Shown here: in pieces, positions 8,514 to 23,434 of the stretch
Position numbering within the stretch: the stretch's first letter is position 1
Layout: each line of letters starts with the position of its first letter
Origin: Candidatus Saccharimonadota bacterium
GTDB taxonomy: Bacteria; Patescibacteriota; Saccharimonadia; Saccharimonadales; Saccharimonadaceae
DNA length: 32,000 nucleotides
Direction of reading: 5' to 3'
NCBI RefSeq assembly: GCF_025273655.1
Contig: NZ_CP045921.1
Span: 690,001 to 722,000, forward strand
Notes under the pieces: generated by a model
Database searches by the model: none
The model's input: the letters and a program-made list of their open reading frames with translations, nothing else
What the model was told of the DNA's origin: nothing
Position numbers and translations under genes: made by a program

Positions 8514-9230
8514 TCAATCTGTTTTGATAGCTTTGTACTTCACTAGCGCCGCACGTGCTGCGGCCTGCTGTGCATTTTGCTTACTTGGACCAGTACCTTT
8601 ACCCATCAGCTTATCACCCACGAACACGCCGAGTGTAAACACCTTATCATGATCTGGTCCGACTTCTTCCAGTACTTTGTAGACCGGCGTGTGGCCATCG
8701 ATGCGCTGACTCACTTCTTGCAGATGAGATTTTGGATCGCGCCAACTGCCACTCTCGAGGATACCGTCGATTTTACTTGTGATATGTGTATGTATGAACT
8801 TTTCTGCGTCTGCGTAACCACGCTCCAAGTATATTGCGCCAATCACGGCTTCAAATGCGTTTGCGAGAATTTGCTGACGCGCCCTGCTACTACCCTGCTT
8901 TTCGCCACGACTCATCCGTACGAGTGATTCATAACCGATGGCGTCGCCTGCCGCGCCAATACTCTCCGTACGCACCAGTGCTGCACGCCAGCTTGTCAGA
9001 ATCCCTTCTGGCTCAGCATAGTTATTGTAGAGAAAATCCGTCACTACCAGCTCAAGCACGGCATCGCCTAGAAATTCCAGGCGCTCGTTGTGCTCGCTCA
9101 CGCTTTTCTTGTGTTCGTTGACATAACTGCGGTGCGTTAGCGCAGTAATAAGCAAATCAATGTTTTCAAACTCAAATCCCAACTTCTCGATTGCGAAGTC
9201 TTGGTAGGGCTGCTTCAACATGCCCGTCAT
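8514..9230 (-). CDS. rnc: ribonuclease III
   Basis: 238 aa. RNase III signature ERLEFLGDAVLELVV plus a C-terminal dsRBD (GPDHDKVFTLGVFV...QQAAARAAL). Confidence 0.95.
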   Translation of the reverse strand: MTGMLKQPYQDFAIEKLGFEFENIDLLITALTHRSYVNEHKKSVSEHNERLEFLGDAVLELVVTDFLYNNYAEPEGILTSWRAALVRTESIGAAGDAIGYESLVRMSRGEKQGSSRARQQILANAFEAVIGAIYLERGYADAEKFIHTHITSKIDGILESGSWRDPKSHLQEVSQRIDGHTPVYKVLEEVGPDHDKVFTLGVFVGDKLMGKGTGPSKQNAQQAAARAALVKYKAIKTD

Positions 9231-9724
9231 AGGTTTTCCTGCCGTATCTTCTTCATTGCAAGCAGCATGAGCTTGCCAATATCTTCGTATTCAATCTCTT
9301 CGAGTGCATCGTGAAACTTAAACCATTTGATACCATTCATCCATTCTTCTTTTTGGATGGCGTTCGTGTCGCCTTTGGCCTTTACGAGGTAGATTTGTGT
9401 CGTCATAAGCACCAGCTTGTCGATACGACGATAACGGAAATGTATCTTGCCGAGCCATCCCAGCATGTCGACGTCTTTCAGACCCGCCTCTTCCCCGATC
9501 TCGCGTTTGGCGGTTTGCTGAGCAGTCTCGCCTTCTTCAATATGCCCCTTCGGGATAGTCCAACGATCTTTTGCGTCTTGGATGAGCAGTATCTCTACGC
9601 CGCCTTTTTCGTCACGGCGAAATACAATACCACCAGCGGTTGGCTCACGCACAATTTCCTGAATACTCGGTCGTTTCCGATTGAAATATTTTTTGAATTT
9701 ATCAAACTTCGGAGGTGTTGCCAT
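9227..9724 (-). CDS. Nudix hydrolase
   Basis: 165 aa from ATG 9724 (GGAGGAA upstream). Complete Nudix box GHIEEGETAQQTAKREIGEEAGL = Gx5Ex7REUxEExGU. The start lies 23 nt inside nusB and the stop overlaps the rnc start (ATGA, 9227-9230). The longer track ORF (to 9961) is an out-of-frame shadow over nusB. Confidence 0.85.
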   Translation of the reverse strand: MATPPKFDKFKKYFNRKRPSIQEIVREPTAGGIVFRRDEKGGVEILLIQDAKDRWTIPKGHIEEGETAQQTAKREIGEEAGLKDVDMLGWLGKIHFRYRRIDKLVLMTTQIYLVKAKGDTNAIQKEEWMNGIKWFKFHDALEEIEYEDIGKLMLLAMKKIRQENL

Positions 9725-10160
9725 CGCCTTGTTCCTCCACAAGCGTACGATACGCCGTGCCAAGCACGCCGTTGATGAATTTGCTTGAGTTATCAGAACC
9801 AAACGACTTAGCAAGTTCGACAGCTTCGTTGATAGCCACGCGAGATGGCACATCGGCTTGCTTGTAGAGCAGCTCGTAGAGACCGATACGCAGTATATTG
9901 CGGTCGATACGTGCGACCTGTGCGAGTGGCCAGTCTGGCGCGAGTGGCTGCAATGTCTCATCTAGCTTGGCAAGGTGCTCTATGACACCGTTTACTAGCT
10001 CCGAGACGAACTTAGTATCGCCGATATCGTCCTTGTAGCGGTCGAGATTGCGCTCGATCACCGCGTCCACATCAACAGGCGTCTCGTCGCTGTGACGAAA
10101 CTCATACTCATACAGGCTCTGGAGAGCCACGATCCTGCCGAGGTGTCGATTTGAAGCCAT
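9702..10160 (-). CDS. nusB: transcription antitermination factor NusB
   Basis: 152 aa. RHLGRIVALQSLYEYEF near the N-terminus and VAINEAVELAKSFG...SKFINGVLG near the C-terminus are typical of NusB. Confidence 0.9.
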   Translation of the reverse strand: MASNRHLGRIVALQSLYEYEFRHSDETPVDVDAVIERNLDRYKDDIGDTKFVSELVNGVIEHLAKLDETLQPLAPDWPLAQVARIDRNILRIGLYELLYKQADVPSRVAINEAVELAKSFGSDNSSKFINGVLGTAYRTLVEEQGDGNTSEV

Positions 10161-11041: not shown

Positions 11042-13927
11042 CTACTTTACGATGCTCACCAGCCGACCAGGGACATAAATCACCTTGGTCGGTTTTTTGT
11101 CGCCCAGGAACTGCTGCACATGCTCGTCGGCTAGAGCCGCTGACTTGACGTCTTCTTCTGGCGTATCGACAGCCAGCTCCAGCTTGGCGCGTAATTTGCC
11201 GTTTACCTGGACGATAATCATCATCGTGTCACTGATGATCTTTGACTCGTCCCATGACGGCCACTGCTCGAAATCAAGCTGCGTGTCGCGACCAAGCTGC
11301 TCCCATAGCTCCGCAGTCATGTGCGGCGCAAACGGCTGCAAGAGTGTCACGAGCGTCTCCAGAGGTTGTTGCCAATCGGCCGTAAAACCTTCGGTTTTGA
11401 GCTTGTAGAGATCATTGACATACTCCATGAGCGCAGCGATAGCCGTATTGAAACTGAGACGACGGATGTCGTCGGTTACTTTTTTAGTGGTTGCATGCGT
11501 CAAGGTATCTAGTTTTTTCGAGTCGGCACCCCCTGCTTTGTCGCTTTCATCGTATTCTTGCACTAGCGTCCAGACGCGATTGAGAAAACGGTATACGCCA
11601 GCGATGCCTTTGCTGCTCCAGTTGCTGTTTTCGTTGATAGGTCCGAGGAATAGCTCGAATGTACGAAGGGCATCGGCACCATAGCCAGCATCTATCACTT
11701 CCAGCGGATCGACCACGTTGCCTTTGCTCTTGCTCATCTTGGTGCCGTCTTCGGCTTGGATAAGACCGTGGTAGACAAGCTGTTTGACCGGCTCTTTCTC
11801 CGGCACGAGTCCCATATCATAGAACACATGATTCCAGAATCGCACGTACAGAAGGTGCGCGACCGCGTGATCCCCACCTATATACATATCTACCGGACTC
11901 CAATAGTCAGCCTTGGCTGGGTCCCATGCTTGCTTGGCGTTCTGCGAGTCGGTGTAACGCAGGAGGTACCAGCTACTGCAGGCATAGCCATCCATAGTAT
12001 CGGTCTCGCGCTTGGCTGGCTTGCCGCAGGTCGGACAAGTGGTGTTTACCCAGTCAGTCTCGCGAGCGAGTACGGATTTGCCATCGCCTTTTGGCGCATA
12101 ATCCGCTACTTCCGGCAGCACCACCGGCAGCTGATCGGCTGGTACTGGCACCGCACCATGCTCGTCACAGTGAATAATCGGTATTGGCGCGCCCCAGTAG
12201 CGCTGACGGCTGATAAGCCAATCACGCATCTTGTAGATGACCTTACTTCGTCCGACGCCCTGCTGCTCGAGCCATGCCACGATCTCTTCGCGCGCTTCGC
12301 TGGTGTGCGTGCCGTCAAATGCTCCAGAGTTAACAAGTAGACCTTCGCGCACATCGGTGTCAATCAGCTTACCCGCCAAATAATCACGCCAGCCCTTGGC
12401 GTGGGTTGACCAGTTGATCATATCTACCACTTCGCTCTTTGGCGCCCAGATCACACCATGCAACCCTTGTTCTATCTCACTGTCAACCTGCACTGTCTTA
12501 TCTATCACGACTTCATAATATGCACCCCATGTTTGATGATTACGGTTTTTGATAGTTCTTTGGGCATGAACTCCGCTAAATGGTGCTACCTGGCGAATGC
12601 TAATGATGTTTGGATAGCCAACCTCTTCGAGTATTTCGCGACGAAGTGCCATCTCGATTGACTCATCTTCTTCATCAACGCCACCGCCTACGAAGTGGAC
12701 ATCCTCTTGGGTATCACTTACTTTTTCAACTTGCAGTAAATAGTTTCCCTCACCATCGGTAATAATTGCATCGACAACCTGCTTTTTGCGAGTAGGCCAG
12801 TCTTCACGAGGTGCAAGTTTTCCGCTCAGTACCTCGTATTCTGCCACTACCTGCACGATAGGCAACTCGTACTTCGTAGCAAATGCGAAGTCACGCTCGT
12901 CGTGCGCCGGCACAGCCATGACTGCTCCCGTACCGTAGCCACCAAGTACGTAATCCGCTACCCAGATAGGGATTTTTTCGCCGTTGACTGGATTTACCGC
13001 ATAACTACCCGTCCATACACCAGTTTTTTCTTTGCCTTCCGACTGACGCTCAATCTCTGACTTTTTGACTGCATCATCTATGTATTTTTCGACATTTTCA
13101 CGCATCTCGTCTGTCGCGAGACTCCTCGCGAGTGGATGCTCCGGCGCCAGTACGAGGAATGTCGCACCAAACAACGTGTCTGGACGCGTAGAAAAGACCG
13201 TAATAAGTTCATCACGACCTTCGACCGCGAAATCAATCTCAGCACCCTGTGACCGTCCGATCCAGTTGGTCTGGGCTGTCTTGATTTTCTCTGGCCAGTT
13301 GAGGTCTGGGATTTCCTCGAGCAGTTCATCTGCGTAGTCTGTAATCTTGAAGAACCATTGCTTCATAGACTTTTTCTCGACCTCTGAGCCGCAGCGCCAA
13401 CACTTGCCGCCCTCTACCTGCTCATTGGCGAGCACTGTTTTGTCGACTGGACACCACCACTGGAGCGATTCTTTCTGATAGGCTAGGTCACGCTCAAACA
13501 TCTGCGTGAACACCCACTGTGTCCATTTGTAATACTCAGGATCGGTTGTGTTGATCTCGCGGGACCAGTCAATACTCGCGCCCACGCGCGTAAGCTGGTT
13601 CTTGAAGTTAGCGATGTTTTGCTTGGTGACAACCGCGGGCGCCGTGCCAGTTTTGATCGCGTAGTTCTCCGCCGGCAAGCCAAAACTATCCCAGCCCATA
13701 GGGTATACGACATTATGGCCAAGTGCACGGCGAAAACGCGCGACTGCGTCTACGATAGAGTGCTCGAAGAAGTGCCCAGTATGCATACCTGCACCAGACG
13801 GGTACGGGAACATTCCAGTTACATAATATTTCGGCTTGTCATCGAAATCTTTGGCCCGATACCGTGCATCATCGGCCCAAATCTGCTGCCATTTCGGCTC
13901 TGTCTCTGTCGGATTGTAGCGTCTCAT
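11042..13927 (-). CDS. leuS: leucyl-tRNA synthetase with an internal Nudix-like insertion
   Basis: Class I motifs PYPSGAGMHTGH (HIGH-type) and KMSKSKGN. CP1 editing-domain strings (TRPDTLFGATF, AVMAVPAHDERDFAFA). The track start 13933 is a GTG; ATG 13927 (MRRYNPTE...) has TATACT (minus, 13936-13941) 8 nt upstream. 961-963 aa, versus the ~820-880 I would expect for bacterial LeuRS. Confidence 0.95.
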   Translation of the reverse strand: MRRYNPTETEPKWQQIWADDARYRAKDFDDKPKYYVTGMFPYPSGAGMHTGHFFEHSIVDAVARFRRALGHNVVYPMGWDSFGLPAENYAIKTGTAPAVVTKQNIANFKNQLTRVGASIDWSREINTTDPEYYKWTQWVFTQMFERDLAYQKESLQWWCPVDKTVLANEQVEGGKCWRCGSEVEKKSMKQWFFKITDYADELLEEIPDLNWPEKIKTAQTNWIGRSQGAEIDFAVEGRDELITVFSTRPDTLFGATFLVLAPEHPLARSLATDEMRENVEKYIDDAVKKSEIERQSEGKEKTGVWTGSYAVNPVNGEKIPIWVADYVLGGYGTGAVMAVPAHDERDFAFATKYELPIVQVVAEYEVLSGKLAPREDWPTRKKQVVDAIITDGEGNYLLQVEKVSDTQEDVHFVGGGVDEEDESIEMALRREILEEVGYPNIISIRQVAPFSGVHAQRTIKNRNHQTWGAYYEVVIDKTVQVDSEIEQGLHGVIWAPKSEVVDMINWSTHAKGWRDYLAGKLIDTDVREGLLVNSGAFDGTHTSEAREEIVAWLEQQGVGRSKVIYKMRDWLISRQRYWGAPIPIIHCDEHGAVPVPADQLPVVLPEVADYAPKGDGKSVLARETDWVNTTCPTCGKPAKRETDTMDGYACSSWYLLRYTDSQNAKQAWDPAKADYWSPVDMYIGGDHAVAHLLYVRFWNHVFYDMGLVPEKEPVKQLVYHGLIQAEDGTKMSKSKGNVVDPLEVIDAGYGADALRTFELFLGPINENSNWSSKGIAGVYRFLNRVWTLVQEYDESDKAGGADSKKLDTLTHATTKKVTDDIRRLSFNTAIAALMEYVNDLYKLKTEGFTADWQQPLETLVTLLQPFAPHMTAELWEQLGRDTQLDFEQWPSWDESKIISDTMMIIVQVNGKLRAKLELAVDTPEEDVKSAALADEHVQQFLGDKKPTKVIYVPGRLVSIVK
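12374..12787 (-). other. Nudix-fold-like domain inserted in frame within leuS (aa ~383-520)
   Basis: Contains GVDEEDESIEMALRREILEEVGY (nt 12614-12682), an exact fit to Gx5Ex7REUxEExGU. Preceded by a beta-rich segment (VVDAIITDGEGNYLLQVEK), as in Nudix folds. Hand-counted GC is ~45% versus ~54-58% in flanking leuS sequence. Boundaries are approximate. Confidence 0.7.
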
Positions 13928-13966
13928 ATACACCTAGTATAACAGATAGAGGTAGCGAGGTGACGA

Positions 13967-17619: not shown

Positions 17620-18324
17620 CTACTTGTGTAGCTGCGCGAGCTTCGGAGTGACCACAAACAAGAGCACGGCTGCAAGTAGCACCGCAAACCCGCACATGAC
17701 GCTCGGAATAGCAGCGAGCGTCTCGGGCTGCAAGAGATTCGCCGCAATAGTTGGCACGATGAACACTAAATACCCGATTCCAAGCCAGTTAAGTGCACTT
17801 CGCCGGGCCGGCTGTTTCATGGCACGCGCATAGATAAACGCTGCTGCTGTACCAACCATGAGCCAGACATAGTAGTAGAGTATGTAATACGTGAGTGCCG
17901 GACGCGCCATCTCGAAAATCACGTAATTGCCTAAGCATGCACCTCCTTGCACCGCATGTCCAACTGTCAAGAAAAACGCCGAAAAACCTATCGCAATAGC
18001 ATAACCGAGACCAACGATAAGTCGCTGTGACTTGCCAGCGATTATCATACCGAGATGTACCCCCAGTGGCGGCAAAAACGATATCGCCACCCAGCCAACA
18101 CGCGCCCAGCCCAAGCTCGACAGATCCAGAGCCGACACACAAATCATATATTCGGCCAACTGAAAGATCGCAAGGCATAGCAGTACGGCAATAATGAGCT
18201 TACTTGCAGGCAGCGATCGATACCGCACCAGTACAATCAGCGCAGCAATCATCTCAAATGCAAATGTCAACAACATCACGAGCGGTGAAAAACAATACAA
18301 GGTTAGAGGATTACGGCGTGTCAT
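17620..18324 (-). CDS. polytopic membrane protein (about 7 hydrophobic segments), unknown function
   Basis: 234-aa ORF, hydrophobic throughout. No catalytic motif recognised. Confidence 0.6.
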   Translation of the reverse strand: MTRRNPLTLYCFSPLVMLLTFAFEMIAALIVLVRYRSLPASKLIIAVLLCLAIFQLAEYMICVSALDLSSLGWARVGWVAISFLPPLGVHLGMIIAGKSQRLIVGLGYAIAIGFSAFFLTVGHAVQGGACLGNYVIFEMARPALTYYILYYYVWLMVGTAAAFIYARAMKQPARRSALNWLGIGYLVFIVPTIAANLLQPETLAAIPSVMCGFAVLLAAVLLFVVTPKLAQLHK

Positions 18325-18476: not shown

Positions 18477-18899
18477 TTATCGAGCGAAAATCGGCAGTGG
18501 TGAATGCGCCCATGGCCAGTCGAGCCCCAGAATATCGCACATAAATCCATAGCCATTGAGTAGCCAGACTGTCAGCACCACCACAATAGCCGTTGCACAC
18601 CAGAAAAGCGCCCGTACTACTGCGCTCTGGGCAGCCAACCAGTGCTGCCATGCGTCGTATTTACCCTTCGCGAAATGCAGTATACGACCGGCCCACTCGA
18701 ACTCAGTTGCAAGTATTGCCAGCGCCGCAAACACGATCAGCCAGCCTGGACCCGGATATGGGATTGCGACGACTCCTACCACCAGCAGCAAACCGCCTGC
18801 GAGGCCGACTACTACTTTCTTCCCGTGACGTTTGGCTGCATCCATATATTTAGCATACCAGATACGACTCGTATTAAGTTTTTTCTCAAACTCTCTCAT
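18477..18899 (-). CDS. PGPGW-motif small membrane protein
   Basis: Track ORF trimmed to ATG 18899 (MREFEKKLN...). Contains the YPGPGW motif between hydrophobic helices (VVGVVAIPYPGPGWLIVFAALAIL), characteristic of the PGPGW transmembrane family. Start uncertain. Confidence 0.65.
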   Translation of the reverse strand: MREFEKKLNTSRIWYAKYMDAAKRHGKKVVVGLAGGLLLVVGVVAIPYPGPGWLIVFAALAILATEFEWAGRILHFAKGKYDAWQHWLAAQSAVVRALFWCATAIVVVLTVWLLNGYGFMCDILGLDWPWAHSPLPIFAR

Positions 18900-18943
18900 G
18901 TATACTACAAATAATATAGTAGTAATCAAAAGGGGCGTAACGC

Positions 18944-19432
18944 GTGCAAGACAACAAGGCAAAACTCATCGGACTAGTCGTAATTGCGCTACTCGCTATC
19001 GGCGGTACTGGCGCCGTAGTAGTACTCAACAAGCAGGACAGCGGACAGTCATCGGAAGCAACAACGACCGAACAGCAAACTCCGGCCACCGAAACTGATA
19101 GTGCCACCTCGAACAGCTCCACGACGGCGACGACGGATACCTACAAAGATGGTGAATACAGTGCCGACGGCACGTACCGCACACCTGGCGGCAACGAAAC
19201 GATCTCTGTCGATATCACGCTGAAAGACAATACTGTCACTGCCGTCAGCGTCGAAGGTAATGGTACTGGCGACTCAGCCGAGTATCAGGCCATGTTCAAA
19301 CAAGGCATCGCAAGTCAGGTTGTTGGTAAAAAGATTGATGAGCTCAATGTGTCTCGTGTCTCTGGTTCATCGCTCACTTCTACAGGATTCAACAATGCAC
19401 TCGATACCATCAAGCAGCAGGCTCAGGCATAG
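18944..19432 (+). CDS. membrane-anchored FMN_bind-domain protein (NqrC/RnfG/PplA-like flavinylation substrate)
   Basis: GTG start with AAAGGGG 8 nt upstream. TM helix (LIGLVVIALLAIGGTGAVVVL), Ser/Thr-rich linker, then an FMN_bind-type domain (YKDGEY..YRTPGG..ISVDITL..TVTAVSVEG) ending in VSRVSGSSLTSTGF, where such domains carry the [ST]GA[ST] flavin-attachment site. Confidence 0.8.
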   Translation: MQDNKAKLIGLVVIALLAIGGTGAVVVLNKQDSGQSSEATTTEQQTPATETDSATSNSSTTATTDTYKDGEYSADGTYRTPGGNETISVDITLKDNTVTAVSVEGNGTGDSAEYQAMFKQGIASQVVGKKIDELNVSRVSGSSLTSTGFNNALDTIKQQAQA

Positions 19433-20273
19433 GCTCTCGTTCGAAGCCATTGGTACCCGCTGGCATATCGACACCCCCACACATATACCTGCAGGTGCTG
19501 CAGCAGACATATACGCGGCTATTCAGGCATTTGATCAAAAATGGTCACGATTTCGCAGCGACTCGCAAGTCAGTGCACTACGCCTCACGGTTGGTACACT
19601 CGCGCTTGATGCAGACGAATACGCCATGTGGCAGCTCTATCGCCAAGTATACGATGCCACAGATAGTGCCGTGTCTCCGCTTGTAGCTGCGGCACTAGAA
19701 GCAAGCGGCTATGACGCAGCCTATTCGCTGACTCGTACGGCAGAAGCGACTGCAGCGCCCGACTGGGATGATGCGCTCTCGCTTGGTCACAACTCCCTCA
19801 CGGTTCACCAGCCCACGCTGCTCGATATTGGAGCCGCCGGCAAAGGCCTCCTTGTTGATCGTGTCGCCTCACTACTCAGTAATACGATTGATACGTATAC
19901 TATCGACGCAGGTGGCGATATCTACGTCGCGGGACATAGCGAGCGTATCGCACTCGAACATCCCGATAATGCGTCGTTCGCGATCGGTGTCGCTCATGTG
20001 GCCGACAGTGCACTCTGCGGCTCTGCGCCAAACAGACGCACATGGGCAGACACGCATCACATCATCGACGCGCGAAGCGGCGTGTCGACTACGCATATCG
20101 CAGCTACCTGGACACTCGCAGCTACTGCCATGGCAGCCGACCTAGCCACAACCACGCTGTTTTTTCTCCCACCCGAGTCTACGCAGCAGCTTATCCCATG
20201 TCAGCCTGTCGTGATGAATACAAACGGTCAACTGCGCTATACTACAAACAAAGATATGGAAATATATGCGTAA
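19395..20273 (+). CDS. apbE: ApbE-family FAD:protein FMN transferase
   Basis: Track ORF 19260-20273 trimmed to ATG 19395 (38-nt overlap with the upstream gene). ApbE motifs FEAIGTRWHI (F-x-AMGT type), TIDAGGDIYVAG, ALCGSAPNRR and HHIIDARSG. No N-terminal signal peptide or lipobox visible. Confidence 0.85.
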   Translation: MHSIPSSSRLRHRLSFEAIGTRWHIDTPTHIPAGAAADIYAAIQAFDQKWSRFRSDSQVSALRLTVGTLALDADEYAMWQLYRQVYDATDSAVSPLVAAALEASGYDAAYSLTRTAEATAAPDWDDALSLGHNSLTVHQPTLLDIGAAGKGLLVDRVASLLSNTIDTYTIDAGGDIYVAGHSERIALEHPDNASFAIGVAHVADSALCGSAPNRRTWADTHHIIDARSGVSTTHIAATWTLAATAMAADLATTTLFFLPPESTQQLIPCQPVVMNTNGQLRYTTNKDMEIYA

Positions 20274-21777
20274 ACTGCTTTCAAGCCTAGAATCGCTCAC
20301 CAATTCACTCACGATGTATATGGTGACGGTCTACGCGCTACTCGCCATTGTCTTGGTGTCGCTGCTACTCAGTGCTGTAGGCGAACTTGGATTCCCCGTA
20401 TTGGCACTGCTCGCGACGCTTTTGACAGTACTTGCCAGCACATATCTCTCTAGTCGGCTCTGCGCCTGGACATTTGGCACGCAGCACAACCGAGCATCGG
20501 GTCTTATCACATCACTCATTTTGTACTTGACGCTTGCACCGGGAGATACTGCCGTAGAACTATTCAAAATCGCGCTAATCGGCTGTATTGCAAGTGTCTC
20601 AAAATATTTACTCGTCTGGCGCGGTCGGCATATCTTCAACCCAGCCGCACTCGCACTCGCACTCGGCAGCTTCCTTGGCTTAAGCTCCGCATTATGGTGG
20701 GTCGGCACGCCGCTGCTACTGCCGGTCGTACTTATCACAGGGCTTATCATCGTTACCAAAACGCGGCGGTATGCCATGGTAACTACATTTACTGTTGTCG
20801 CCATCGTGACATCGATAGCGGTCGCAGCATCTACCAGCTATCCAGTCCTAGATGCACTGCGGCTTGATATACTATCTGGACCTCTAGCATTTTTTGCCGC
20901 TGTCATGCTCACCGAACCACTTACTTCCCCTGCCACTCGGCGTCACCAAATAGGCTATGCTGGACTTGTAGGGCTACTATATAGCGCACAGCTGCCGTGG
21001 GTCTCAACTCCCCACATCTCTCTCCTAGTCGGCAATCTGTATCGGCTTATTGTGCAGCCACAGCGCAGTGCACTGTCGCTCCGTGTCATATCAGTCAGTG
21101 AGATTGCACCCGGCGTCTACGAACTACAAGCAATGCCAGCACATGCAATTCGCTATACAGCCGGACAGTACCTCGAGCTGCAGGTACCTCACGCGAAACA
21201 AGATAGTCGTGGTACGCGTCGAATCTTTTCAATTGCGTCGTCGCCAGACGAGAAGACTCTGCGGCTTACCACTCGTGTACCCACACACAAAGCGAGTAGT
21301 TTCAAGCACGCCTTCGTACGACTCACCCCCGATACCCAACTCCGCGCTACCTATATAGGCGGCGATTTCGTACTACCGCACGATCCCAAAGCGCCACTCC
21401 TATGGGTTGCTGGTGGTATCGGGATTACGCCATTTCGTGCCATGGCCGCGTCTCTTCTATCTGCACATGATATGCGCCCTGTCATACTCTTCTATCAGGC
21501 ATATACACCGAGAGACTTAGCGTATTTGTCGTTTTTCACACGTGCAGCACGAAGTCTCTCGCTCACAATCATCCCAGTGGTAGCTGAAGCACCGGCAAAC
21601 TGGACGGGCGAAACAGGGCGCGTATCACGTACGTTACTCGGGCGCTACGTTCCAGACATTCATATGCACCATGTGTACATCTCTGGTGCACCGGCTATGG
21701 TAGAATCTACCCGCAGCCTCTTCGCACACGACTACAAACCCGTGCAAATCATGACTGACCACTTTAGCGGCTATTAA
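20266..21777 (+). CDS. fusion protein: NqrB/RnfD-like polytopic membrane domain + FNR-type FAD/NAD(P)H oxidoreductase domain
   Basis: The start overlaps the apbE stop by 8 nt. N-terminal ~250 aa are hydrophobic, with RHIFNPAALALALG and FFAAVMLTEPLTSP (RnfD/NqrB-like strings). C-terminal ~240 aa carry RRIFSIASSP (RxYS-type FAD site), LWVAGGIGITPF (NAD(P) site) and VYISGAPAMV. Confidence 0.8.
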   Translation: MRKLLSSLESLTNSLTMYMVTVYALLAIVLVSLLLSAVGELGFPVLALLATLLTVLASTYLSSRLCAWTFGTQHNRASGLITSLILYLTLAPGDTAVELFKIALIGCIASVSKYLLVWRGRHIFNPAALALALGSFLGLSSALWWVGTPLLLPVVLITGLIIVTKTRRYAMVTTFTVVAIVTSIAVAASTSYPVLDALRLDILSGPLAFFAAVMLTEPLTSPATRRHQIGYAGLVGLLYSAQLPWVSTPHISLLVGNLYRLIVQPQRSALSLRVISVSEIAPGVYELQAMPAHAIRYTAGQYLELQVPHAKQDSRGTRRIFSIASSPDEKTLRLTTRVPTHKASSFKHAFVRLTPDTQLRATYIGGDFVLPHDPKAPLLWVAGGIGITPFRAMAASLLSAHDMRPVILFYQAYTPRDLAYLSFFTRAARSLSLTIIPVVAEAPANWTGETGRVSRTLLGRYVPDIHMHHVYISGAPAMVESTRSLFAHDYKPVQIMTDHFSGY

Positions 21778-22741: not shown

Positions 22742-23434
22742 CTAGTTGTTTTCGAGATTGATTTTTGCAAAACGGGGCTGGCGCATACCATCTATCTCAA
22801 TAGTTTCTACAAACATCTCGTATGGACGAACCCATACGGACGGCAAACCCCTAGCCTTACGTTTGTACGATACATACACCACCAACCATTCCAGAGTTTC
22901 GCTATGACACGCCAGTTCGGTCACTGTGTACATACCACCCTTGTAATGCCGATATGGACCCGTAGGCAACTTTGGCGGCTCCCCCGTCTGCTTCATGGAT
23001 CCTGTGTCAGACTTTTGATGCAATTTTTCATCTCGCTGCCCATCCATTTCCGGATATTTGCTCGGGTCAGCCCGACAGTACTGTGCCCATTTGTCGTCTT
23101 CGTCTGGCATCTTGACTGTTTCGATATAGTGCCCAGCCAGGAACCCGCCTTTTTTGTCGCGCTTGTGTCGCTGGACTGCGCGTAGCTCATCGGAGCCAAT
23201 CGCTTGGCTTGTACATAGATCGTCGAGGAGTTGCTGTACATCAGCGATTTCTTCTACTAGCTCGTCGCGTGTCTTGGCACCTTTGACTTCGTCGGCCTCT
23301 TCATGGAGTTTCTCGGCCATGGCGGCACGAAGCGCGTCGCCACTTAGCTGCTCACCAGTCGGTGTGTGACCAGCCTCGATATGCCAATCCCATATATTGT
23401 CGCGCACAAGTTTGTGATAACGAAATGTTGGCAT
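22742..23434 (-). CDS. MazG-like all-alpha NTP pyrophosphohydrolase fused to a DUF1653 domain
   Basis: N-terminus YHKLVRDNIWDWHIE...KLHEEADEV...ELVEEIADVQQLLDDL (PRA-PH/MazG-like house-cleaning family). C-terminus GPYRHYKGGMYTVTELACHSETLEWLVVYVS...VWVRPYEMF (DUF1653 pattern). GGGGGA upstream of the ATG. Confidence 0.7.
   Translation of the reverse strand: MPTFRYHKLVRDNIWDWHIEAGHTPTGEQLSGDALRAAMAEKLHEEADEVKGAKTRDELVEEIADVQQLLDDLCTSQAIGSDELRAVQRHKRDKKGGFLAGHYIETVKMPDEDDKWAQYCRADPSKYPEMDGQRDEKLHQKSDTGSMKQTGEPPKLPTGPYRHYKGGMYTVTELACHSETLEWLVVYVSYKRKARGLPSVWVRPYEMFVETIEIDGMRQPRFAKINLENN

Follow-up and report, generated by a model that had tools for sequence, protein, structure and literature searches.

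A three-gene NQR/RNF-like locus in Candidatus Mycosynbacter amalyticus: a probable flavin-based route for electrons across the membrane

Patescibacteria (the candidate phyla radiation, CPR) are usually viewed as fermentative organisms without electron-transport chains, and a route from NAD(P)H to the outside of the cell would alter models of them. Whether such a route is encoded by three overlapping genes is the question raised by a 32,000-nucleotide (nt) stretch of a Candidatus Saccharimonadota genome (NCBI RefSeq assembly GCF_025273655.1, contig NZ_CP045921.1, positions 690,001 to 722,000; hereafter the window). In it an earlier note, made from the letters only, had read a minimal electron-transfer system composed of a membrane-anchored protein with a flavin mononucleotide (FMN)-binding domain (FMN_bind), an ApbE flavin transferase, and a fusion of an NqrB/RnfD-like membrane domain to a ferredoxin-NADP-reductase (FNR)-type module. 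The gene coordinates, strand and overlaps proved to be exactly as given there: three co-directional open reading frames (ORFs), intact and translationally coupled, occupy window positions 18944-21777 on the forward strand, with overlaps of 38 nt between genes 1 and 2 and 8 nt between genes 2 and 3. GII36_03915 of Candidatus Mycosynbacter amalyticus, listed by NCBI just as 'hypothetical protein', has the same sequence as the fusion protein (100% identity); this organism belongs to the Saccharibacteria and parasitises Gordonia amarae (PMC11880426).

We consider it likely that the three proteins serve an outward chain leading from NAD(P)H through flavin adenine dinucleotide (FAD), a membrane flavin, and covalent FMN on Ser143 of the FMN_bind protein to an external acceptor. 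The idea is not new, as the locus is a further member of the 'NQR/RNF-like systems' described by Meheust et al. 2021 (eLife, PMC8238504) and modeled by Huang et al. 2024 (mSystems, PMC11334425); the system is still hypothetical. The electron-chain interpretation of the earlier note is supported, and repeats a published hypothesis that it had reached independently.

Domains, fold and topology of the three proteins

Sequence-only proof that the N-terminal half of the fusion protein is homologous to RnfD was weak, given a sub-threshold Pfam score for the window protein and a profile of the isolated membrane domain (A2) whose single PDB sequence match was Azotobacter vinelandii RnfD (8ahx_D, E 0.0066); the matter was settled by a fold search with the isolated domain. 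The A2 alignment to 8ahx_D places MLTEPLTSP over ATDPVTSP and also aligns the FNPA motifs, an hhalign comparison with E. coli RsxD gave an E-value of 2.5e-5 over amino acids (aa) 157-261, and PF03116 (NQR2_RnfD_RnfE) was matched by 15 of 21 relatives of the fusion protein (best E 7.9e-10). A fold search with the full-length model was dominated by the FNR module. With the AlphaFold2 model of the isolated domain (aa 1-262; predicted local distance difference test score [pLDDT] 89.6, predicted template modeling score [pTM] 0.87), the best 15 Foldseek matches in the PDB were all RnfD or NqrB (TM-score 0.58-0.69), headed by A. woodii RnfD (9eri_D, E 4.8e-6, TMq 0.69) and including RnfD of A. vinelandii and C. 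tetanomorphum and V. cholerae NqrB (TM 0.58-0.65). Urea transporters came next in the ranking (E>4e-3), as expected for the RnfD/NqrB fold; NOX was not among the fold matches, and PF01794 was unmatched in the Pfam scan. Judged by model and profiles together, the N-terminal half has the RnfD/NqrB fold and its homology is established, as the earlier note had claimed.

The four motifs that had been quoted for the fusion protein are all present (HIFNPAA, MLTEPLTSP, RRIFSIASSP, GGIGITPF; Table 1). Within the membrane half, H122, F124, N125, P126, A127 and A128 are invariant in the 21 relatives, and E217, P218, T220 and P222 are likewise invariant, as is K113, which lies inside the membrane region. 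A global alignment to RsxD pairs FNPA (124 in the window protein, 121 in RsxD), WWV with WQWV (144/220), and TEPLT with TDPVT (216/288), and leaves RsxD ~131-213, including GISQAT187, without a counterpart. The RnfD loop at this place is ~80 aa long and bears the covalent-FMN threonine. Since that stretch of RsxD is unmatched and there is no [ST]G[AS][ST] motif anywhere in the fusion protein, the RnfD-like half has, on this alignment, lost the entire covalent-FMN loop; the suggestion that it lacks a flavinylation site of its own thus held for loop and motif alike.

Model helices and the charge distribution in the 21 relatives predict a topology of 10 transmembrane (TM) helices with both termini inside. 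The predicted inner loops carry 1.7-2.8 Lys+Arg per sequence, save for the short loop at 71-75 (0.38), versus 0-0.7 in the predicted outer loops and zero in the loop with W144 and W145. This topology would make the FNR module cytoplasmic and would put the vacated flavin site on the outer face. The vacated site agrees in position with the covalent FMN of RnfD and NqrB, which is held towards the outer face, the riboflavin lying ~8 Å away on the cytoplasmic side (PMC12174285).

The C-terminal half is, by profile and model, a complete two-domain FNR-type module, as had been proposed. It scored 57.2 bits to PF00175 (NAD_binding_1, aa 381-483) and matched the NCBIfam NAD(P)H-flavin reductase family (E 2.7e-26, aa 270-500), and a PDB profile search returned E. 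coli Fre (1qfj, E 4.6e-27, profile positions 266-494) along with NqrF, benzoate dioxygenase reductase, and flavohaemoglobins. Supporting this, Foldseek with the full-length model (pLDDT 88.1, pTM 0.83) matched 1qfj (TMt 0.84) and also NqrF, flavohaemoglobin, and the SpNOX dehydrogenase domain. The FAD and NAD(P)H motifs and the C-terminal aromatic residue (Y503 in the window protein) are invariant or nearly so in relatives; residues R318, R319, F321, S325, P327, G384, G386, T388, P389, D498, F500 and G502 are invariant.

The FMN_bind protein scored 23.4 bits against the PF04205 cut-off of 22, and its 677 homologues are mostly 150-185 aa in length with the same architecture. The best solved relative of the family profile (A3) was the FMN-binding domain 8p2a (E 1.5e-15). 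While membership in PF04205 was thus upheld, the more specific assignment to the NqrC/RnfG type was not: hhalign against E. coli RsxG gave a probability of 1.3%, over a 24-residue motif region only, so that specific RnfG/NqrC orthology is not supported and the domain is, by sequence, a generic FMN_bind. The SGSS motif is the only match to [ST]G[AS][ST] in the protein and has an invariant G141 and a nearly invariant S140; ~60 of 72 orthologues carry the motif exactly 23 aa before their C-terminus. In alignment, VSGSSLTS of the window protein corresponds to VSGATYTS of the flavinylated domain 8p2a.

Several features bear on which side of the membrane this domain occupies. Its sole N-terminal hydrophobic helix peaks at aa 9 with a hydropathy of 2.58 (19-residue window). 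Across 68 orthologues, the N-side flank of the anchor carries 151 Lys+Arg and 57 Asp+Glu, and the C-side flank 89 and 75, i.e., a net charge of +94 versus +14, and two orthologues have true lipoboxes (LTGC in locus L023, VAGC in L045). The N-in charge bias and these lipoboxes place the FMN_bind domain outside the membrane by prediction, so that the topology read in the earlier note, which had a cytoplasmic FNR module and an external FMN_bind domain, stood as far as sequence analysis tells. The predicted Ser/Thr-rich linker was also found; it differs in sequence and length among orthologues. Ser/Thr/Pro-rich linkers are typical of extracytoplasmic tethers. One Patescibacteria locus (L021) has tandem FMN_bind genes (1020-1568, 1614-2090) 5' of ApbE, one with SGAS and the other with SGSS.

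The ApbE protein gave the clearest family score (PF02424, 125.6 bits), and its family profile (A4) matched solved ApbEs of E. coli, Thermotoga and V. cholerae at E-values of 1.7e-35 to 8e-35 over positions 8-278. The V. cholerae ApbE triad S241/H257/D285, whose residue roles are described in PMC12052999, is paired in the alignment with S210, H222 and D249, all three invariant, and the H257G mutant chain 6nxj has Gly in the H222 column. By this alignment the Ser-His-Asp triad is intact.

Table 1. Sequence features of the three-gene locus (window coordinates)
Feature	Position	Strand	Remarks
Shine-Dalgarno-like AAGGGG	18930..18935	+	8 nt 5' of the GTG start of the FMN_bind gene; read from sequence
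Gene 1, FMN_bind protein	18944-19432	+	GTG start; 162 aa; predicted ApbE substrate and outer electron carrier
Signal-anchor TM helix	18968..19024	+	Gene 1, ~aa 9-27, N-terminal; IGLVVIALLAIGGTGAVVV
Ser/Thr-rich low-complexity linker	19031..19141	+	Gene 1, aa 30-66; 51% Ser+Thr
Putative flavinylation motif SGSS	19361..19372	+	Gene 1, aa 140-143; predicted attachment of FMN at Ser143
Gene 2, ApbE-type FAD:protein FMN transferase	19395-20273	+	ATG start; 292 aa
Gene 3, RnfD/NqrB-fold and FNR-type fusion	20266-21777	+	ATG start; 503 aa
RnfD/NqrB-fold domain	20266..21054	+	Gene 3, aa 1-263; 10 TM (predicted); flavinylated loop absent
HIFNPAA motif	20629..20649	+	Gene 3, aa 122-128; counterpart of RnfD/RsxD FNPA
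Short outer loop	20674..20709	+	Gene 3, aa 137-148; LGLSSALWWVGT; invariant W144 and W145; at the position of the RnfD FMN loop
MLTEPLTSP motif	20905..20931	+	Gene 3, aa 214-222; counterpart of RnfD/RsxD TDPVT
FNR-type FAD/NAD(P)H module	21073..21777	+	Gene 3, aa 270-503; C-terminal, cytoplasmic (predicted)
RRIFSIASSP	21217-21246	+	Gene 3, aa 318-327; FAD motif RRxFSxxSxP
GGIGITPF	21412-21435	+	Gene 3, aa 383-390; NAD(P)H motif GGxGxTP

At the position equivalent to the GTG start of the FMN_bind gene, the close relative L002 has an ATG (MQDKRAK). A scan for promoters and terminators gave site numbers for the locus that were no higher than those for shuffled sequence.

Distribution and likeness to known systems

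Scanning one genome per species for relatives of the fusion protein, we found at least 544 genome loci that encode one, and read the gene order in the best 80 of these, calling the partner genes with family-specific hidden Markov models for the FMN_bind protein and ApbE. The order FMN_bind, ApbE, fusion, on the same strand and adjacent or overlapping, was present at 62 loci on a strict count and at ~65 after re-binning three with long open frames, out of ~75 informative loci; the others among the 80 comprised five cut by contig ends, five with the fusion gene but neither partner, and a few rearranged. This arrangement is far beyond chance, and the trio is conserved as a unit as the earlier note had anticipated. 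Judged by record titles, the taxa with the locus include Patescibacteria (Saccharibacteria/Saccharimonadia, Levyibacteriota, Daviesbacteria, Gracilibacteria, Paceibacterota, Nomurabacteria) and, beyond them, Chloroflexota (Ktedonobacterales, Limnocylindrales), Thermoleophilia, and Microbacteriaceae (Actinomycetota). When 1.84 billion representatives were searched with a profile of the membrane domain, 614 clusters (50% identity) matched at E<=1e-30. Censuses that depend on Pfam thresholds, such as the published one with 127 clusters, undercount the family, a point that appears unreported in the parts of the two NQR/RNF-like papers available to us; the probable reason is that most FMN_bind partners have no precomputed PF04205 match and that the window fusion falls under the PF03116 threshold. 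The module is unmentioned in a published Saccharimonadia metabolic reconstruction. A widespread and self-contained electron route would change how CPR redox balance, iron acquisition, and host-cell interaction are modeled.

As a side observation, 19 metagenome-assembled genome (MAG) records labelled 'uncultured Gammaproteobacteria' or 'Pseudomonadales' carry a CPR-type locus with 35-40% identity to the Saccharibacteria protein (L009, L010, L014, L016, L024-L026, L028, L030, L032, L033, L035, L036, L045, L047, L052, L064, L073, L077). The taxonomy assigned to these third-party assemblies does not look reliable.

The published NQR/RNF-like systems are the closest counterpart. Meheust et al. described 127 clusters, mainly in Actinobacteria and the CPR, in which a PF03116 membrane domain is fused to PF00175 and accompanied by apbE and an FMN-binding gene (PMC8238504). 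The window locus has the same C-terminal PF00175 fusion, the same FMN_bind partner and apbE in the cluster, the same loss of the flavinylation Thr from the RnfD-like domain, and the same taxa, and the same one-way proposal from NAD(P)H to an outside FMN would apply; the clusters were called by an ApbE and/or FMN_bind gene within five genes, and here both lie directly upstream and overlap. Nothing essential differs, except that the window fusion falls just short of the PF03116 threshold and is missed by the strict Pfam definition. Huang et al. (PMC11334425) likewise found that the NqrB/RnfD flavinylation site lacks conservation in the membrane subunit of NQR/RNF-like systems, obtained an AlphaFold-multimer complex for Ktedonobacter racemifer with the subunit docked outside, and proposed that the covalent flavin of the partner samples the vacant non-covalent site.

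Rnf and Na+-NQR are alike in the RnfD/NqrB fold with its FNPA and T(D/E)P motifs, in the NqrF-like FAD/NADH module, in their dependence on ApbE, and in having an RnfG/NqrC-style single-TM protein with covalent FMN (here predicted). They have six subunits, however, versus two polypeptides here. Genes for RnfA/E, RnfB, and RnfC (NqrA, D, E) were not found among the window ORFs scanned, and without such homologues the module would lack both the intramembrane [2Fe-2S] cluster and the semicircular path of the electrons. The ~80-aa covalent-FMN loop of RnfD is deleted from the window fusion, which on this count falls outside Rnf and NQR proper, and whereas NqrF of Na+-NQR has a ferredoxin domain, the NqrF-like module of the window has none and follows the RnfD-like domain as a C-terminal fusion. 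The module may be seen as a stripped-down model for the RnfD/RnfG half of these pumps.

Extracellular electron transfer (EET) in Listeria monocytogenes also pairs an ApbE-family enzyme with a surface-tethered FMN_bind protein as last carrier, in a monoderm and with NADH as donor. It crosses the membrane via Ndh2, a demethylmenaquinone pool and EetA/B, however, none of which is found here, and of a Listeria-type locus (Ndh2, EetA/B, DmkA/B, FmnA, FmnB, PplA) the window has just the ApbE and FMN_bind components. Even these differ, as Listeria FmnB is a lipoprotein whereas the window ApbE has no export signal, and PplA has two FMN_bind domains and a lipobox, unlike the window FMN_bind protein. 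Fusions of the NOX/FRE, MsrQ-like and PepSY-like types (e.g., SpNOX, 8qt6) similarly join a polytopic membrane domain to a C-terminal cytoplasmic FNR module for the export of electrons, but the NOX-type membrane domain is a di-haem ferric-reductase, whereas that of the window has, by our model, the flavin-type RnfD fold.

A specialist in flavin-based electron transfer would recognize the system at once. With the idea already published, the value of this locus lies in its testability and in three side observations, namely an ApbE without an export signal, a distribution wider than had been counted, and the cupredoxin partners described below; the culturable host-parasite pair and the puzzle of where ApbE acts are what remains of value in a system so readily recognized. 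Co-culture with Gordonia amarae is possible for Ca. Mycosynbacter amalyticus, which is therefore among the few organisms in which a native test of the NQR/RNF-like hypothesis is feasible.

The proposed chain and competing readings

In the chain that we infer, NADH or NADPH, whichever serves as donor, would be oxidised by the FAD-bearing FNR-type module on the cytoplasmic side of the 503-aa fusion, and the electrons would cross the membrane via the 10-TM RnfD/NqrB-fold domain, where the carrier is probably a non-covalent flavin at the RnfD/NqrB riboflavin site near the cytoplasmic face. From this flavin they would pass to FMN, phosphoester-linked to Ser143 of the membrane-anchored FMN_bind protein at the outer face, which would supply the flavin that RnfD would carry on the loop deleted here; ApbE would install this FMN from FAD. 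The reduced outer FMN would then hand its electrons to an acceptor for which the locus has no gene, the candidates being Fe(III), O2, an external flavin or quinone, host-derived molecules, and a blue copper protein such as that encoded beside the fusion gene in some relatives. Electron exchange with a host cell, as suggested in the earlier note, would be one conceivable use of the chain.

A number of observations weigh against this chain. We found no experimental study of any NQR/RNF-like family member in the literature. When we ran the Pfam checks that the earlier note had proposed, the matches to PF04205, PF02424 and PF00175 passed, but the window fusion scored 25.0 bits against a cut-off of 27.7 for PF03116, with a match confined to aa 156-239. 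The consensus flavinylation motif, found near the C-terminal end of the domain, is D-x-x-[ST]-G-A-[ST], and Ser is less well accepted than Thr as the acceptor residue by model ApbEs (PMC12052999), whereas the window motif S-R-V-S-G-S-S departs from the consensus twice (S for D and S for A) and ends in Ser. It keeps the Gly and both hydroxyl positions, and the SGSS-type variant is conserved in CPR orthologues as the dominant form, the Chloroflexota branch having the canonical D-I-V-S-G-A-T. No acceptor gene, and indeed no fourth gene of any kind, is conserved beside the trio in the 80 loci. Finally, no signal peptide, lipobox, or hydrophobic N-terminal extension was present in the window ApbE or in 64-71 orthologues.

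This last point, on which the earlier note had not remarked, is a puzzle. The window ApbE is a bare catalytic domain whose conserved core begins 15 aa after the ATG, and at three loci (L003, L004, L007) the ApbE frame opens one codon after a stop. As the ApbEs that are exported are lipoproteins, and those without a signal serve targets in the cytoplasm (PMC12052999), such an enzyme fits poorly with a substrate domain outside the membrane. A readthrough or frameshift fusion of FMN_bind and ApbE was ruled out, as the relative frames are evenly spread (22/22/20) over 64 loci; each ApbE has its own ATG, ~-41 to +30 nt from the FMN_bind stop in most of these. We also rejected a longer ApbE start at 19260 as the source of a signal peptide, the 45-aa extension having a hydropathy of just 1.55, charged residues, and no equivalent available in relatives. 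Three possibilities are flavinylation before translocation, an ApbE that reaches the outside by another route, and an FMN_bind domain that is cytoplasmic despite the topology evidence. The first, in which FMN is attached in the cytoplasm and the FMN-bearing domain is then translocated, may apply and would be a first for ApbE substrates; the third appears the least likely, mainly on account of the orthologues with lipoboxes. The survey pipeline of Meheust et al. needed just one signal peptide per cluster (PMC8238504), and the lack of an export signal on ApbE in this system appears unreported in the available portions of the literature on it.

A cytoplasmic FMN_bind domain would turn the module around. 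With an N-out, C-in anchor and flavinylation on the inside, the complex would be a membrane-bound NAD(P)H:acceptor reductase, not an exporter, delivering electrons to a membrane-soluble or cytoplasmic acceptor. This would suit an ApbE that is without an export signal at every locus examined, given the cytoplasmic proteins that known signal-less ApbEs flavinylate, but we regard it as quite unlikely. The charge bias of the FMN_bind anchor favors N-in, two orthologues have lipoprotein signal peptides, the linker is of the extracytoplasmic type, and the place that the FMN loop has vacated in the RnfD-like domain is predicted to be on the outer face. Moreover, the TM-anchored cupredoxins of some relatives share the anchor-plus-linker design and stand beside the fusion or replace FMN_bind and ApbE, and the published multimer model docks the subunit outside (PMC11334425). 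The outward chain could alternatively be coupled to Na+ or H+ translocation, or be run in reverse on an ion gradient, as the retained RnfD/NqrB fold with its two pseudo-symmetric half-helix motifs (FNPA and TEPLT), the invariant acidic E217 and the invariant K113 inside the membrane region would permit; RnfD/NqrB are related to urea and ammonium channels and provide the Na+ path proposed in some models (PMC12174285). The RnfA/E (NqrD/E) pair, which is the ion translocator in rival models, is nevertheless absent, as are ~80 residues of RnfD, and NAD(P)H offers little driving force towards an FMN of low potential, so energy conservation here seems unlikely. For the same two-polypeptide, RnfD/RnfG-derived module to be a minimal redox-driven cation pump and not just an electron outlet is similarly doubtful; if it were one, Patescibacteria without a respiratory chain, Ca. 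Mycosynbacter amalyticus among them, could build a membrane potential from NAD(P)H.

Electron uptake, in which the outer FMN accepts electrons from an external or host reductant and passes them inward to NAD(P)+, strikes us as very unlikely. Rnf can run either way, and nothing in the architecture itself sets a direction (PMC12174285), but for typical flavin potentials the reaction would be uphill without an ion gradient, no gene context favors it, and the FNR modules found on membrane domains (NOX, Fre, MsrQ-like) are NAD(P)H-oxidising inputs (PMC8238504). That the three genes are a chance juxtaposition or a decaying remnant with no joint function is scarcely credible: nothing speaks for it except that two of the four domains have marginal Pfam scores, and it is refuted by conservation, with the same trio order at 62-65 loci in several phyla, invariant catalytic and cofactor motifs, and ORFs that are intact and coupled. 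We retain the outward chain as the probable function of the locus.

Neighbouring genes, cupredoxins, and the rest of the window

Among the 80 loci, the commonest neighbour families of the trio were ABC transporters (13 loci) and response regulators (11 loci). The neighbours in the window (a PGPGW-family protein, a 7TM protein, an APH-like kinase, and LigA) are common only to the two closest relatives and represent ordinary synteny. The earlier note had seen no respiratory, quinone, or cytochrome genes in the window, and we found none among the larger ORFs scanned; the rest of the window consists of housekeeping genes, e.g., those for leucyl-tRNA synthetase (LeuRS), a MurF-like ligase, LigA, TrmD, and RNase III.

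A gene for a small TM-anchored cupredoxin adjoins the fusion gene in 8 of the 80 loci (~10%) and is absent from the window. Type-1 copper ligands (H..C..H..M) are present in the cupredoxins of five loci (six genes, with two in L044). In L024 (7541-8065) and L036 (7510-8049) the cupredoxin gene lies directly 3' of a full trio and its product shows the type-1 copper ligand pattern FYCSVGNHRAMGM. Cupredoxin genes flank the fusion gene on both sides in L044 (1-198, 1800-2315), while L038 (4850-5320, reverse strand) and L077 (1198-1665, reverse strand) have a divergent cupredoxin gene and neither FMN_bind nor ApbE. A variant without the Cys stands in place of FMN_bind and ApbE in L048 (5525-5986) and before FMN_bind in L054 (4898-5371). 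These neighbours suggest that a blue copper protein is partner or acceptor in a subset of loci, and the loci with a cupredoxin but no FMN_bind or ApbE suggest that the fusion protein is able to work without a flavinylated partner. Cupredoxins are unmentioned in the part of Meheust et al. 2021 (PMC8238504) available to us, and as neighbours of the fusion gene they appear unreported in the accessible literature on these systems.

Some further genes of the window, all on the reverse strand, deserve mention. The PGPGW-family membrane protein gene (18477-18962), which is divergent from the FMN_bind gene, lies beside the trio just in the closest relatives (L001 and L002); its longest ORF shares 19 nt with the start of the FMN_bind gene, and its real start is therefore probably an internal Met (MREFEKK, near 18899). 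In the LeuRS ORF (11042-13933, 963 aa), an inserted NUDIX domain (aa 384-502, E 9.4e-11) separates the editing domain from the second half of the catalytic core, and another NUDIX gene is nearby (9227-9961). The ORF at 22742-23434 has a DUF1653 domain (E 9e-23) at its C-terminal end and, in its N-terminal region, a weak likeness to MazG/PRA-PH. A 234-aa polytopic protein (17620-18324) resembles the N-terminal 7TM region of histidine kinases, with a PF16927 score of 25.5 bits that is under the cut-off, and has no kinase domain.

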